Shown here in pieces: positions 1-8,558 of a stretch of DNA of 64,000 bases. Source of the DNA: Candidatus Binatia bacterium (GTDB lineage Bacteria > Desulfobacterota > Binatia > HRBIN30); the NCBI GenBank assembly GCA_038245295.1, contig JBBRSP010000005.1, forward strand, positions 1 to 64,000. The letters run 5' to 3'. How positions within the stretch are numbered: position 1 is the stretch's first letter; every line of letters starts with the position of its first letter. The position numbers and the translations under genes were made by a program. The notes beneath the pieces were generated by a model. That model ran no database searches. It saw only the letters and a program-made list of their open reading frames with translations, and had not been told where the DNA came from.

Positions 1-2
1 AC

Positions 3-1622
3 GACGACATCCGTCGGACACGCCGCCGCACTGCCGGTACAATTCTCCGCCACGTCGCAACCGCCAGGTACCGCGGCGCGACAAACCGTGCTCGTCGACG
101 CAAACACGTCGGTCGGACATGTATTCGATGATCCGTTGCAAACCTCAGCCACGTCGCAGATGCCGGCTGAGCCACGACACGTTGTCCCCGAGGCTACGAC
201 GACATCCGTCGGACACGCCGCCGCACTGCCGGTACAATTCTCCGCCACGTCGCAACCGCCAGGTACCGCGGCGCGACAAACCGTGCTCGTCGACGCAAAC
301 ACGTCGGTCGGACACGTATTGGTACCGTTGCATTTCTCGATGACGTCGCAGACGCCTGCCGAGCCACGGCACGTGGTTCCCGATGCTACTACGACATCCG
401 TCGGACACGACGCCGAACTGCCGGTGCAATTCTCAGCCACGTCGCAACCACCAGGAACCGCGGCACGACAAACCGTGCTCGTCGATGCAAACACATCGGT
501 CGGACAGGTATTGGTCCCGTTGCATTTCTCGATGACGTCGCAGACGCCTGCCGAGCCGCGGCACGTGGTTCCCGATGCTACTACGGCATCGGCGGGACAC
601 GACGCGGAGCCACCGGTGCAATTTTCGGCAATGTCGCAGCCACCGACCACCGCGGCGCGACAAACCGATCCGGTGCCGAGAAATGTATCCGCCGGGCAGG
701 TAGCCGCCGCCCCACTACAGGTCTCCTGAGAATCGCAAACACCGGCCGACGGGCGGCAAACCTGGGCAGCCGCGCGGAATTGGCAAGTCGACGTGCAGCA
801 GGAGGTTGGGCTACCGTTCGCCCCACCTTGATCGCACTGCTCGCTGACCCCGGCATCAACGGTGCCGTTTCCGCACAAGGAGGTGAACGCCACGGTCACG
901 AAATGGCCGTCGGTGGCGGCGGTACGGCCGGGCGAACCGGGATAACCGCAGGCACCACAGCCGGTCGTGGTACCGCTCGACTCGCCGAGGCGAACCGCTG
1001 CTTCGCACGAGTTACTCTTGACCGCACCGTTCCAGGTAAAGGTAAGGGAATGCGACTGCGCCACGTTGTTGCTGACGCGCAAGATGGTCGCTGAACCGGC
1101 TTGGTTGATCGTCGTGGATTGCGTATTGCCATCGGAACCAAAGCCGCCCGGATCCGCCAGGCTGAGTGAGCCCGAGCTTACCGCGATGTTGGAACTGCCG
1201 GTGATGCCACTGACGTCGGCCTGGCCGCTGCAACCCGCAAGGTCATTGTTCTTATTGATGTCGCCCAGCTCCGAGGTGCTGATATCCAGCCGGTAACCGC
1301 CCGGTGCCGTGGCGCTGAAGGTGATGTTATGCGACGCGCTACCGCTCGTGTCGTGCGTCGAGCCCGCGCCGGTGTCGGCATTGATATTCCAGGCGTAGCG
1401 GCTGGTGAAAGTCGCACCGGTGTTCGCAACGGTGAAGCCAACCGAGTTACGGCAGTCGCCGTCCGCGCTTCCGCCACCGGAGCAGCTGGCGCCTGTCGTC
1501 GAGTCGGCGGCACTGCTGAGTTGCCCCACAGAGGTGCTCGGACTCAGTGCAACAAACAGAAGCAGACATCTGACCAACACCGGTGAACAGACCTGCGTGC
1601 ACCACGACGTGCGGACGATCAT
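3..1622 (-). CDS. Secreted Cys-rich protein with tandem disintegrin-like repeats; 3' end runs off the window; paralog of 5724..8558
   Basis: Absent from the ORF track because no stop lies in the window. Hand translation from ATG 1622: MIVRTSW...LLFVALSPSTSVG, then ...DGHFVTVAFTSLCGNGTVDAGVSEQCDQGGANGSPTSCCTSTCQF, then repeats such as CRPSAGVCDSQETCSGAAATCPAD. Confidence 0.88.
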   Translation of the reverse strand, partial: MIVRTSWCTQVCSPVLVRCLLLFVALSPSTSVGQLSSAADSTTGASCSGGGSADGDCRNSVGFTVANTGATFTSRYAWNINADTGAGSTHDTSGSASHNITFSATAPGGYRLDISTSELGDINKNNDLAGCSGQADVSGITGSSNIAVSSGSLSLADPGGFGSDGNTQSTTINQAGSATILRVSNNVAQSHSLTFTWNGAVKSNSCEAAVRLGESSGTTTGCGACGYPGSPGRTAATDGHFVTVAFTSLCGNGTVDAGVSEQCDQGGANGSPTSCCTSTCQFRAAAQVCRPSAGVCDSQETCSGAAATCPADTFLGTGSVCRAAVVGGCDIAENCTGGSASCPADAVVASGTTCRGSAGVCDVIEKCNGTNTCPTDVFASTSTVCRAAVPGGCDVAENCTGSSASCPTDVVVASGTTCRGSAGVCDVIEKCNGTNTCPTDVFASTSTVCRAAVPGGCDVAENCTGSAAACPTDVVVASGTTCRGSAGICDVAEVCNGSSNTCPTDVFASTSTVCRAAVPGGCDVAENCTGSAAACPTDVV

Positions 1623-5706: not shown

Positions 5707-5723
5707 GATTTGGTGTCATCGAC

Positions 5724-8558
5724 TCACTTGCAGCGCAGGGTTGAACCTACCTTGTTGAACGCACAGAAGGGGATCGGCTTTGCCGGTCCGGGCCACTTCG
5801 CTTCACCACACTGGCCCGTCGTCGCCAGCGGCGAGTCGATGATGATCGTCGCGCGCGCCGGCAAGTTGACCGCCGCGATCGCATAGTTGCCGTTCTTTCC
5901 GACGATGCTGTACTTGATCTCGCCGGGGATCTTGGTGGTCTTGATGACGAACTTGTAGATGCCGCCGACCGGCGTCAGGCCCTGGTCGCGGTAGGTCGCC
6001 TTGGTGCCGGAGAGGTTGAGCTTCCAACCCACCTTGGTGATGACGTTGTACGAGCCAGGCGGGATGGTGGCATCGAGGATTGTGTGCTGGGCACTGTCCT
6101 CGACGATCACCCGCGCACCCTTGGTCGGCGGCGAGATCGCCGGCATCGTCGGGACGATGATGGTCCCTGCCAGGGTAATCTTGTCATCGCCCGGCAACGT
6201 GTTGAGGCGGCGAATGATCAGGCGATGTTTGGTTGCCTGGACGTTGTTGACGTTGTTGCAGGCGTCGCAGGCGTTGCCGACGCCATCGCCGTCGGCATCC
6301 GCTTGATCGGCGTTGGCGAGGTTGACGCAGTTGTCGCAGCCGTCGCCGACGCTGTCGTTGTCGGTATCCTCGAAGGTATCGGCCGGGCACAGAGCGCTGG
6401 CGCCGGAGCAGACCTCCGGCAAGTCGCACGTGCCGCTGGCGGCACGGCACTGCGTCCCCGATGCCACGAAGGTATCGCTCGGGCAGTTGTTGCCGATACC
6501 GTCGCAGCTTTCGGCGATGTCACACACACCACCGGAGACCCGACACACGGTAGTCAACTTGGCATCGACCGGACACGCGGTGGTGACGCCGTTGCAAGTT
6601 TCCTGCGCATCACACGGACCCGCCGAGGCGCGACAGACCGCACCGTTCGAAGAAATCGTATCGATCGGACATGTCGGATCGATACCGTTGCAGACTTCCG
6701 CAATGTCACACAGCCCAGCAGCGGCGCGACAGGTCGTACCGCTCGGGCTGATGACGTCGCTTGGGCAAACATCGCCGACGCCGTCACAGGATTCAGCCGG
6801 GTCGCAGGCTCCCGTCGAAGCACGGCACACAGATGTGCTCTTGGCGTCGGCCGGACAGTCGTTCGCCGACCCGTCGCAACTTTCCGCGGGATCACAGTCG
6901 CCCGCCGAGGCGCGGCATTGCGCACTGCTCTTGGCATCGGCGGGGCAGTTGGCGCTGCTGCCGGTGCAGTTTTCAGCCGGATCACACGCGCCTGCCGAGG
7001 CGCGACACACGGTCGTGCTCGGGACGAAAACATCGGCCGGACACGTGTCGCTGGCACCGTTGCAAAGCTCGGCGACGTCACAGTCACCGGCCGAGGCGCG
7101 GCATTCCGTACCACTCGGTTGCTTGAGATCGGCCGGACAAGCCGGGCTCACGCCGTTACAATTTTCGGCGGCATCGCAGATGCCGGCGGCGACGCGACAG
7201 GTGACACTGTTGGGCTGTACTTGATCGGGCGGACAGGTCGGCGAACCACCAGTACACTTCTCGGTCACATCGCACAGACCGGCGGCGGCGCGACAGATGG
7301 TGGTCGATGGCGAGAGGACGTTCGACGGGCACGCGTTGCCGACGCCGTCGCAGAATTCGGCCGGGTCGCAGTCGCCGGCGGAGGCGCGGCATTGCGCCGA
7401 GCTCTTGGCGTCCATCGGGCAACTCGCCGAGAGTCCCGTGCAGTTCTCCGCCGGATCACAGGCACCGAGCGACGGATGGCAGACCGTAGCGCTCGATTGA
7501 AAGCCATCGGCGGGGCAATTCACCGAGGCGCCGGTGCAGGCCTCCGCGACATCGCAGGTGCCGGCGGAAGGACGGCACGGGGTGCCGCTGGTCACCAGGC
7601 TATCAGCCGGGCACGTGGCGCTGGAGCCGGTGCAGCTCTCAGCCTGGTCGCAGGCACCGGCGGCGGCGCGGCATTGTGTGCCGACCGTCTTGAACGTGCA
7701 GTTGGTATTGCAGCAGGACGACGCGGTGCCGTTGGCTACCCCTTGGTCGCATTGCTCCGAGTATCCGGAGCCAGCCGGCGCATCGACGGTGGCGTTGCCG
7801 CACAACGACGTCAGGGTAACCGTTACGAAGTGGCCATCGTTATTAATGTTGCGGTTGTTCTGGCCGGGGTAGTCTTCGGCGCCGCTGGAACCGTCGCGTC
7901 CGGCAATGCCCAGACGTGCCGCCGCTTCATGCCCTGACGCCGCGGCGCTCTGACCGAAGCTGGTAAACTGGAAACGCAGCGTGTGGTTCTTGGTCACACC
8001 GTTGCTCTGGTTGAACAACCGCCCCAGGCCGCTCTGATCAAAGGGCAAGTTGCAGCTGTTGGTACCGCTGCAGCTGGCGCCGCCGGGATCGGCAACAGCC
8101 AACGACCCGGAGAGGGACGCGCTGGCACCGGTCTGAGTGCCGCTGACCTGGCTGATGTCGGCGCTGCCGCCGGTGACACCACCGTCATAGATCACGTTGA
8201 GCTCGCCGGTTAGTTGCTGCGCCACATCGATATAGTAGGCGCCGGGCGCGTTGACCGTGAAACTGATCGTATAATCCGATGTCATGGTCTCGGTGACGTT
8301 GCCACCGAAAGCACCCGAATCGGAGGAAGCCGTCGAAGCGTAACGCACCTTGAACTGCGAGCTCGTCGTCGTTTGCGTCGCCACGGCGCTTTGGCGATCG
8401 TAGCTGTTGTTGCTTCCATTACTGAAGTCGTCGGCACTGGAGTTGTTCACCAGCGATGGCGCTGACAACGTCTGCGCCCCGGCGCTGCTGACTGCCAACA
8501 GAACGGCGACCGCTAGACCGCCACAAAGACAAGACGGTTGGATGAAGCGTAGACGCAT
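5724..8558 (-). CDS. Secreted protein with 14 tandem disintegrin-like repeats, TSP3-like Ca-binding repeats and a C-terminal domain
   Basis: Signal peptide, CGN...EQCD...CC...C followed by 14 units of C(R/H)xxxGxCDxxExCxGxxxxCPx(D/N), then DTDNDSVGDGCDNC...DQADADGDGVGNACD. Confidence 0.9.
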   Translation of the reverse strand: MRLRFIQPSCLCGGLAVAVLLAVSSAGAQTLSAPSLVNNSSADDFSNGSNNSYDRQSAVATQTTTSSQFKVRYASTASSDSGAFGGNVTETMTSDYTISFTVNAPGAYYIDVAQQLTGELNVIYDGGVTGGSADISQVSGTQTGASASLSGSLAVADPGGASCSGTNSCNLPFDQSGLGRLFNQSNGVTKNHTLRFQFTSFGQSAAASGHEAAARLGIAGRDGSSGAEDYPGQNNRNINNDGHFVTVTLTSLCGNATVDAPAGSGYSEQCDQGVANGTASSCCNTNCTFKTVGTQCRAAAGACDQAESCTGSSATCPADSLVTSGTPCRPSAGTCDVAEACTGASVNCPADGFQSSATVCHPSLGACDPAENCTGLSASCPMDAKSSAQCRASAGDCDPAEFCDGVGNACPSNVLSPSTTICRAAAGLCDVTEKCTGGSPTCPPDQVQPNSVTCRVAAGICDAAENCNGVSPACPADLKQPSGTECRASAGDCDVAELCNGASDTCPADVFVPSTTVCRASAGACDPAENCTGSSANCPADAKSSAQCRASAGDCDPAESCDGSANDCPADAKSTSVCRASTGACDPAESCDGVGDVCPSDVISPSGTTCRAAAGLCDIAEVCNGIDPTCPIDTISSNGAVCRASAGPCDAQETCNGVTTACPVDAKLTTVCRVSGGVCDIAESCDGIGNNCPSDTFVASGTQCRAASGTCDLPEVCSGASALCPADTFEDTDNDSVGDGCDNCVNLANADQADADGDGVGNACDACNNVNNVQATKHRLIIRRLNTLPGDDKITLAGTIIVPTMPAISPPTKGARVIVEDSAQHTILDATIPPGSYNVITKVGWKLNLSGTKATYRDQGLTPVGGIYKFVIKTTKIPGEIKYSIVGKNGNYAIAAVNLPARATIIIDSPLATTGQCGEAKWPGPAKPIPFCAFNKVGSTLRCK

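Follow-up and report, generated by a model that had tools for sequence, protein, structure and literature searches.

Why does a bacterium carry, side by side, two genes for disintegrin-repeat proteins, a gene for an FG-GAP propeller and a gene for a membrane glycosyltransferase that recalls the TMTC enzymes of eukaryotes, and do these genes act together? The locus lies at the start of the window, by which we mean the whole stretch of 64,000 nucleotides analysed here, i.e. the first 64 kb of contig JBBRSP010000005.1 (contig C5 below) of an uncultured sediment Candidatus Binatia bacterium, whose genome comprises 6.6 Mb in 129 contigs. The four genes follow one another head to tail on the minus strand in the order DisB, FG-GAP protein, GT-C/TPR enzyme and DisA, DisA and DisB being the two disintegrin-repeat (Dis) proteins. 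Our preferred answer, to which we assign a probability of roughly 0.45, is that the locus encodes modular secreted proteins, each composed of a head, a disintegrin-like stalk and an end module, together with a dedicated glycosyltransferase that faces the periplasm. This answer draws on the modular build of a lineage-wide protein family and on the recurrent adjacency of Dis and GT-C/TPR genes.

5724..8558, minus strand: DisB, 944 aa, with signal peptide, head, disintegrin-like stalk, thrombospondin (TSP) type-3 repeats and a C-terminal beta-sandwich (open reading frame (ORF), Pfam, two predicted models)
3763..5673, minus strand: FG-GAP_3/UnbV_ASPIC propeller (CRTAC1-like), 636 aa as called, to which homologs align from about residue 66 (Pfam)
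1789..3729, minus strand: GT-C (PMT clan) membrane glycosyltransferase with a C-terminal TPR domain, 646 aa (Pfam TPR, family alignment)
1..1661, minus strand: DisA, at least 553 aa, with signal peptide, DisN-type head and 8 visible four-Cys units, running off the start of contig C5

An earlier reading of these letters, made without database searches (the sequence-only reading), had described four co-oriented genes with these domains. The ORF list and Pfam bear it out, and its Disintegrin, FG-GAP and TPR calls are all right. Disintegrin (PF00200) scores 233.2 bits over 12 stretches in DisB and 141.5 bits over 6 stretches in DisA, against a cut-off of 35.1. The N-terminal domain that it saw in both Dis proteins is indeed common to them (phmmer E 2.6e-26; 36.6% identity over 216 aa), and DGHFVTV...TSLCGN is present in both.

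An ADAM-type disintegrin fold in DisB

DisB is complete and can be divided as follows.

7773..8474, minus strand: DisN head (residues 29-262), an elongated beta-sandwich (model with a predicted local distance difference test score, pLDDT, of 94.5)
7602..7886, minus strand: complete ADAM-type disintegrin-like domain (residues 225-319), beginning with CGN (phmmer to 3k7n, E 8.6e-10; structure Z 8.2; Pfam profile positions 24-75)
6378..7601, minus strand: 13 further four-Cys units of 30-32 aa each (residues 320-727), CRxxxGxCDxxExCxGxxxxCPxD, with Ser/Thr-rich linkers (repeat listing)
6243..6377, minus strand: TSP type-3-like calcium-binding repeats (residues 728-772; match of model residues 1-45 to 2rhp_A)
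5727..6242, minus strand: DisC, the C-terminal beta-sandwich (residues 773-944), with a conserved Cys one residue before the end (model pLDDT 84.8)

In the structure predicted for DisB residues 29-352 (pLDDT 94.5), residues 223-324 superpose on the D-domain of an elapid venom metalloproteinase (3k7n_A) with Z 8.2, a root-mean-square deviation (rmsd) of 2.4 over 86 aa and 43% identity. The same model matches ADAM17 (8snl_A) at Z 6.1, and a Foldseek search with it also returned VAP2 and AaHIV with a probability of 1.00. From sequence alone, residues 225-727 found six P-III snake venom metalloproteinases (SVMPs) by phmmer at E 8.6e-10 to 3.6e-4, the best being 3k7n, aligned from CGN to CPxD. Since both the fold of the model and the sequence match venom D-domains, we ascribe the disintegrin assignment to homology rather than to composition. 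A true ADAM-type disintegrin fold in DisB is thus supported by the predicted model and by the alignments, and the absence of such a fold, which would have told against the sequence-only reading, did not occur.

The domain in front of the stalk differs from that of the venom proteins: no reprolysin-type metalloproteinase family of Pfam matches DisB or DisA, and the N-terminal domain is a beta-sandwich instead. Its best solved structural match (model residues 8-227) is Bd1399 of Bdellovibrio bacteriovorus (8OKH), with Z 10.3, rmsd 3.5, 156 of 165 residues aligned and a Foldseek E of 4.5e-5; carbohydrate-binding modules follow at Z ~7. Excerpts of PMC10792529 describe Bd1399 as a secreted DUF4360-like beta-sandwich whose function is not known. 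Unlike the DisN head, Bd1399 is a single-domain protein, and the two are only 7% identical. At the other end, the model of residues 728-944 (pLDDT 84.8) comprises TSP type-3 repeats and a beta-sandwich. Its first 45 residues match TSP-1 (2rhp_A) with Z 6.7, rmsd 2.1 over 45 aa and 49% identity, as well as 1ux6_A (Z 5.3, 48% identity); Pfam TSP_3 is not listed for DisB at E<=0.01. The DisC sandwich gave no Foldseek match at E<=0.001 and a best Z of 5.5, with no clear solved relative.

A lineage-wide family of modular secreted proteins

Dis repeats are not peculiar to this locus. PF00200 has 131 matches in 15 open frames of the genome and is present in 28 of the 41 genomes of the same order (this genome counted). 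None of the 14 control genomes has a match, so the hits do not reflect a chance pattern. The four-Cys pattern C-R-x3-G-x-C-D-x2-E-x-C-x-G-x4-C-P-x-D fits 708 of 722 units from 77 proteins, with its positions 87-100% conserved. Linkers between units are 7.8 residues long on average; Ser or Thr is present in 671 of 708.

DisN occurs in 6 proteins of the genome, and DisC stands at the extreme C-terminus of 9, some of which lack Dis repeats. A second type of end module, ~230 aa long, whose cysteines are conserved and whose end is basic (…RTKRALLRLTCVARPL), takes the place of the TSP type-3 repeats and DisC in five Dis proteins; these are encoded on C12, C35 (39534-43346), C36, C15 and C5 (203169-207167, last 240 aa). 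Among 5.8 billion sequences DisN is rare, with 57 clusters that bear Binatia-type names and of which all but two also carry PF00200. The stalk is common: 1036 protein clusters match at E<=1e-6, from Binatia, Sorangium, Archangium, Limnocylindria and Actinomycetota, and in these it is fused to metallophosphoesterase, subtilase, lectin, NHL, cohesin/dockerin and other heads. A profile of TSP type-3 repeats plus DisC found 45616 matches among protein clusters, mostly to the TSP type-3 part, and 6 of the 150 listed spanned the whole profile, so that no count of DisC can be taken from it. The Dis proteins belong to a lineage-wide family whose secreted members are modular, with head, disintegrin-like stalk and end module.

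DisA appears to be a larger member of this family than its visible part. C5:1-136 is 98.5% identical to C12:200656-200791 (L004 15657-15792), and C5:1-320 is 93.5% identical to C12:200461-200780, where an N-terminally cut Dis ORF of 1939 aa is found. One paralog, C35:39534-43346, is the best match within the genome both for the DisA head (57% identity) and for the Dis tail on C12 (68%). Because the two contig ends are nearly identical and because head and tail point to the same paralog, DisA and the C12 ORF probably form one gene of ~2,500 aa that was broken by a 195-nt tandem repeat. No exact sequence overlap joining C12 to C5 was found, and the join rests on the near-identical repeats and the consistent paralogy. 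Judged from these sequences, DisA very probably ends in a C-terminal module different from that of DisB.

Most other Dis genes of the genome sit among housekeeping genes, and a few have neighbours worth recording. A Thioredoxin_7 gene lies directly upstream of a Dis gene at one locus of this genome, G000:C35 (L001 2351-2866), and at one of a second genome, G005:C71 (L046 4838-5326), and is a candidate helper for the folding of proteins with 50-250 cysteines. Directly downstream of the Dis gene on C12 (L004 7764-9841) are a 120-aa ORF that belongs to no family, an enzyme of the MbnB/TglH/ChrH type (375 bits) and a DUF2063 protein. These look like a cluster for a ribosomally synthesized and post-translationally modified peptide (RiPP), MbnB/TglH/ChrH being a RiPP-modification enzyme. 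A ManC-type mannose-1-phosphate guanylyltransferase is encoded two genes from the Dis gene on C15 (L008 4319-5518), and a cohesin-domain protein adjoins the Dis gene on C46 (L011 9337-9867).

The GT-C/TPR enzyme

The TMTC1-4 proteins are the cadherin-specific O-mannosyltransferases of eukaryotes, and the window enzyme resembles them in having an N-terminal GT-C domain followed by C-terminal TPRs.

2470..3729, minus strand: membrane GT-C domain (residues 1-420; PMT_2 in family members, hydrophobic segments)
1810..2442, minus strand: TPR domain (residues ~430-640), putatively periplasmic (Pfam TPR families)

Pfam matches the enzyme only with TPR families, at residues ~410-635, and a search of PDB sequences with the whole enzyme likewise returned TPR proteins only, including O-GlcNAc transferase. 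The assignment of the membrane part comes from its family. In all 30 aligned paralogs and relatives D39, D40 and a HPxxVESVAW block are invariant, the DD motif directly following the first hydrophobic segment (residues 12-30), as is typical of PMT-clan enzymes, whose acidic DD/DE motif lies in the first extracytoplasmic loop after TM1. A crude hydropathy plot gives at least eight strongly hydrophobic segments rather than 11. PMT_2 is found in 7 of the 30 (best E 1.7e-7) and DUF1736 in none. Homologs number more than 6950; many of them contain PMT_2, and JGI annotates some as protein O-mannosyl-transferase. The genome itself has 34 PMT_2 matches and 14 GT-C/TPR paralogs; one of these, on C43, matches PMT_2 at 28.5 bits, and two distant ones (C1:289095-291152 and C20:9906-12089) score 32.1 and 28.3 bits against TMTC_DUF1736, which exceeds the cut-off; 0 of the 14 control genomes have such a match.

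According to parts of PMC7801869, TMTC membership is defined by the DUF1736 segment, a loop between TM7 and TM8. Because the window enzyme has no match to it (PF08409), we class the protein as a PMT-clan GT-C enzyme with TMTC-like architecture and not as a TMTC. The label 'TMTC-like' of the sequence-only reading thus holds for architecture and motifs, the family consensus AALFALHPLxVESVAW resembling LLFAVHPIHT of human TMTC3 (excerpt of PMC7801869), and fails for family membership. Further differences from the TMTCs are the bacterial origin of the enzyme and its 14 GT-C/TPR paralogs in one genome.

In relatives, the closest homologs of the enzyme belong to a cassette of an FGE-sulfatase-like gene, the GT-C/TPR gene, a second GT-C gene with PMT_2 and a GT2 gene (L042, L043, L047 and L050, in G014, G018, G024 and G008, respectively). 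This cassette fits a polyprenyl-phosphate-sugar pathway, for which a GT2 and a second PMT_2 enzyme are reportedly the usual make-up (PMC11127046). Other GT-C/TPR homologs adjoin genes for DUF4215 Cys-rich proteins. In two relatives, Cys-rich secreted proteins of the Ephrin_rec_like/TNFR type are encoded next to GT-C/TPR genes (L044 7238-8896, 232.9 bits; L049 13023-14825, 134.2 bits); they make up a further 'eukaryote-like' Cys-rich family in Binatia.

GT-C/TPR genes recur beside Dis genes

Within the genome, 3 of the 14 GT-C/TPR paralogs directly adjoin a Dis-repeat gene where 0.065 would be expected, and 0 of 20000 permutations reached as many as three. With the window genes left out, 2 of 13 are adjacent (0.053 expected; reached in 77 of 50000 permutations), and counting DisC-bearing proteins as well raises this to 3 of 13 (reached in 4 of 50000). 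Widening the set to 50 Cys-rich proteins of the same genome (at least 5% Cys) added no GT-C/TPR neighbours, and the signal comes from Dis-type proteins only. In six other Binatia genomes a GT-C/TPR gene lies within ~2 kb of a DisN locus, in varied arrangements (6 of 49 DisN loci from other genomes). Roughly 0.5 would be expected, a rough estimate that was taken from the density in the window's own genome (14 per 4970 called genes) and applied to kindred genomes and many short loci.

The pair at the window has a counterpart in the same genome. The nearest paralog of the enzyme (C35:35704-37599, 40% identity) is found upstream of the nearest paralog of DisA (C35:39534-43346), at a distance of 1.9 kb. 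Because the nearest paralogs of both sit together, this arrangement supports the idea, drawn from sequence relationships, that the enzyme and DisA have remained paired ever since an old duplication.

The propeller as a probable interchangeable head

The propeller matches FG-GAP_3 (149.9 bits, 6 stretches), UnbV_ASPIC (50.7 bits, residues 496-563) and FG-GAP (45.4 bits) in Pfam, and ends in a short tail.

3766..3966, minus strand: C-terminal propeller tail (residues 570-636), which contains DCDGDG, a degenerate loop-helix motif of the dockerin kind (sequence inspection)

The tail belongs to no Pfam family. FG-GAP and UnbV_ASPIC are the only families that match the propeller; the legs and membrane anchor of an integrin alpha chain are not among its matches, and no integrin is encoded here. 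A calcium loop-helix of the DCNGDGEVTVDEIL type (dockerin-like) is found near the N- or C-terminus of at least 46 called proteins of the genome, among them both close propeller paralogs.

The role of the propeller is best judged from proteins in which it is fused to Dis repeats. Clusters P0283 and P0224 consist of FG-GAP_3 and UnbV_ASPIC followed by Dis repeats. The head of P0283 is 48% identical to the window propeller over 477 aa (E 7e-129) and its tail is TSP type-3 repeats plus DisC (E 2e-24), so that P0283 corresponds to DisB with a propeller in place of DisN. Because such fusions carry the propeller on the same stalk, we read it as an alternative head rather than as a receptor: from these alignments it is more likely a free-standing form of an interchangeable head, which other bacteria fuse to a Dis stalk and end module, than a receptor for disintegrins. 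As separate genes, the two types are seldom linked. Three genomes have a Dis gene and an FG-GAP/ASPIC gene as immediate neighbours, in the window, at G004:C9 and at G007:C357 (the last two being L040 and L041), and an FG-GAP/ASPIC gene is near 1 of the 49 DisN loci. The two close propeller paralogs of the genome, on C16 and C1, have no GT-C/TPR neighbour.

Proposed function and its alternatives

In the mechanism that we propose, the GT-C/TPR enzyme would be an inner-membrane protein whose DD motif and TPR domain face the periplasm, where it would take a sugar from a polyprenyl-phosphate carrier and attach it to the exported products of neighbouring genes. The likeliest acceptor would be a DisA-type protein, modified on the Ser/Thr-rich linkers between its repeats, and glycosylation of such linkers is plausible from their composition. 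The TPR domain would recognise the folded repeats. In this way TfpW glycosylates the pilin whose gene adjoins its own, and the TMTCs act on the domains of cadherins. The Dis proteins probably form surface or matrix fibres, stabilised by calcium and disulfides, that present binding heads; an integrin-like pairing of receptor and ligand need not be assumed.

Several observations weigh against this proposal. Ser or Thr occupies only about 50% of the linker positions, and there is no fixed sequon. Residues 1 to ~420 of the enzyme match no Pfam family even at E<=10, neither PMT_2 nor DUF1736, and a profile of the GT-C domain family gave 0 matches at E<=1 among PDB sequences. The window locus holds no gene for donor synthesis, and the cassette around the closest homologs in relatives holds no Dis gene. 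Ten of the 14 GT-C/TPR paralogs have neither a Dis-repeat nor a DisC-bearing protein as neighbour, no GT-C/TPR gene occurs within 10 kb at 43 of the 49 DisN loci, and the genomes compared are related, so that the counts are not independent. In a tree of 43 GT-C domains the Dis-adjacent enzymes are scattered rather than forming one clade (8 label changes against a shuffled mean of 9.1), a result to be read with the biased sampling of this tree, whose loci were chosen by different criteria and in which at least one row (L053) is labelled 'no' despite a Dis gene. In the syntenic relative G045 (L121), a nuoN ortholog (75% identity) is followed by a DisB ortholog (57% identity over 936 aa), and the next 10 kb contain nothing like the propeller, the GT-C/TPR enzyme or DisA. 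Conserved linkage, whose absence the sequence-only reading had named as a refuting result, therefore breaks down for the cluster as a whole, of which this relative keeps DisB only; it stands for the pair of GT-C/TPR and Dis genes, and weakly, with three genomes and 1 of 49 loci, for that of FG-GAP and Dis genes.

These observations lend themselves in part to an explanation by co-location without functional coupling, in which expanded families happened to land together downstream of the nuo operon and the enzyme serves envelope glycans or unrelated proteins. It is a possible explanation, with less to recommend it than the one we prefer. The absence of the cluster from the syntenic relative would follow from it, as would the lack of a GT-C/TPR neighbour at most DisN loci and of an FG-GAP/ASPIC neighbour at 48 of 49, the Dis-free cassettes of the relatives, the housekeeping surroundings of most other Dis genes and the sheer size of the families (15 Dis open frames, 34 PMT_2 matches and the FG-GAP proteins). 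It does not account for an adjacency that exceeds the permutation expectation by far even without the window, that recurs as a paralogous enzyme-Dis pair on C35 and that appears in varied arrangements in six further genomes; nor would it lead one to expect three of the genes to be only 33-50 nt apart, or proteins that fuse propeller and stalk. An acceptor other than the Dis arrays is also conceivable, namely the beta-propeller (FG-GAP/ASPIC here, NHL or FG-GAP elsewhere). The enzyme gene starts 33 nt downstream of the propeller gene, its nearest paralog on C35 directly follows two NHL propeller genes, the C43 paralog adjoins a DisC-bearing protein with a propeller-type domain, and in relatives the closest GT-C/TPR homolog has an FG-GAP/ASPIC gene at ~6 kb (G014, G018) or an FG-GAP_3 protein at 2 kb (G033). 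We nevertheless hold the propeller to be an unlikely acceptor: the statistically supported association is with Dis genes, the close propeller paralogs on C16 and C1 have no such enzyme beside them, and the distances of several kb in relatives are filled with other genes.

The sequence-only reading had gone further and made the FG-GAP propeller an integrin-like receptor for the disintegrin arrays, the two forming an adhesion pair. The direct proximity of Dis and FG-GAP/ASPIC genes in three genomes and the proteins that join both domain types would agree with this, but the fused proteins carry the propeller where DisN would otherwise stand, on one and the same polypeptide, as expected of interchangeable heads. 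The stalk is, moreover, fused to many unrelated heads, a propeller is near only 1 of 49 DisN loci, and the propeller is of the CRTAC1/ASPIC type and not of the integrin alpha type, which together make the adhesion pair very improbable. Returning to modular secreted proteins served by their own glycosyltransferase, one may extend this reading, doubtful as the extension is, to other exported repeats. Each TMTC-like paralog would be dedicated to one kind of Cys-rich repeat (disintegrin-like, DUF4215 or ephrin-receptor/TNFR-like), amounting to an ER-like, domain-specific glycosylation in Binatia and probably in other bacteria rich in GT-C/TPR enzymes. The disintegrin, TSP type-3 and CRTAC1 modules would then be old bacterial parts of glycosylated surface fibres and possibly the source of animal matrix modules.

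Comparison with known systems

DisB shares the cysteine framework and, in its predicted model, the fold of the D-domain of ADAMs and P-III SVMPs (PF00200; 3k7n, 3hdb, 2dw0, 8snl). Unlike these, the Dis proteins lack a metalloproteinase domain, are found in a bacterial host and have the C-terminal four-Cys half of the domain multiplied from 14 to more than 50 times to make a stalk. Another parallel is TraA of Myxococcus xanthus, which reportedly has a variable head, a stalk of cysteine-rich repeats and a C-terminal sorting tag. The Dis proteins would share with it the general plan of a surface protein, a head on a Cys-rich stalk that ends in a C-terminal module, and some myxobacterial homologs of the Dis arrays are named MYXO-CTERM proteins. 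They differ from TraA in the fold of the head, in the C-terminal modules and in their repeats, which are of the disintegrin and not the TIGR02232/DUF4215 type; repeats of the latter type gave no NCBIfam match here. The propeller is similar to CRTAC1/ASPIC-UnbV proteins in its FG-GAP_3 repeats followed by UnbV_ASPIC, all above the Pfam cut-offs. Vertebrate CRTAC1 carries an EGF-like domain, which has no counterpart among the Pfam matches of the window propeller. Unlike CRTAC1, the window propeller has a dockerin-like tail, and in relatives the propeller is fused to a disintegrin-like stalk.

For the enzyme, a parallel in architecture and gene position is TfpW of Pseudomonas aeruginosa. Portions of bioRxiv 10.1101/2020.04.19.049825 describe TfpW as a 646-aa GT-C protein that has a DDX motif and whose C-terminal TPR domain is periplasmic. 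This pilin arabinosyl/oligosaccharyl transferase is indispensable for the glycosylation of pilin, and its gene follows directly downstream of pilA. The window enzyme, also of 646 aa, combines GT-C and TPR domains and lies beside genes for secreted proteins. Its presumed substrate differs, being a giant Cys-rich repeat protein and not a pilin.

All the domain families found here are already in databases. A literature search brought up no paper that treats disintegrin-like repeat proteins of bacteria or connects them with GT-C/TPR enzymes; other cysteine-rich repeats are the subject of the preprint 10.64898/2026.06.07.730663. Bacterial TMTC-type GT-C/TPR homologs number in the thousands, and the searchable literature assigns a substrate to none of them. 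The recurrent pairing with a family of giant secreted proteins thus offers a concrete and testable enzyme-substrate candidate. The ADAM-type disintegrin module, here 43% identical to a snake-venom D-domain, turns out to be a widespread bacterial stalk element, with more than 1000 protein clusters in several phyla, and its combination with thrombospondin-type calcium repeats and CRTAC1-type propellers bears on the origin of the extracellular-matrix modules of animals. For annotation, 'Disintegrin' and 'FG-GAP' matches in bacteria do not imply an integrin-like pair of receptor and ligand.

Gene spacing, neighbouring genes and assembly

The gaps between the genes as called are 50 nt (DisB/propeller), 33 nt (propeller/GT-C-TPR) and 127 nt (GT-C-TPR/DisA). 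The last becomes 166 nt if DisA starts at ATG 1622, which is preceded by the Shine-Dalgarno-like AAGAGGGG. One further feature falls in this gap.

1734..1747, minus strand: weak hairpin that resembles a terminator and has a T-run, in the gap separating DisA from the GT-C/TPR gene (5-pair stem)

The scan of the region for promoters and terminators was uninformative, finding 5 terminator-like sites where shuffling predicts 7.3. The locus is independently covered by Logan contigs of run X1 (the probable source sample), which span 528-5564 and 5536-9000+; pieces from a second sample, X2, are short and bridge no gene junction.

Upstream of DisB, and in the same direction, an operon of 11 nuo genes (8960-19415) ends at a distance of 401 nt. 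This complex I operon contains nuoA, B, C, D, H, I, J, K, L, M and N, with nuoE, F and G not within it. Open frames on the plus strand opposite the locus, at 6084-7937, 6313-7224 and 1-729 (617, 303 and 242 aa), are by-products of the GC-rich repeats, and at two other loci (L053 and L120) a simple ORF caller picked such an opposite-strand frame over the real Dis gene.

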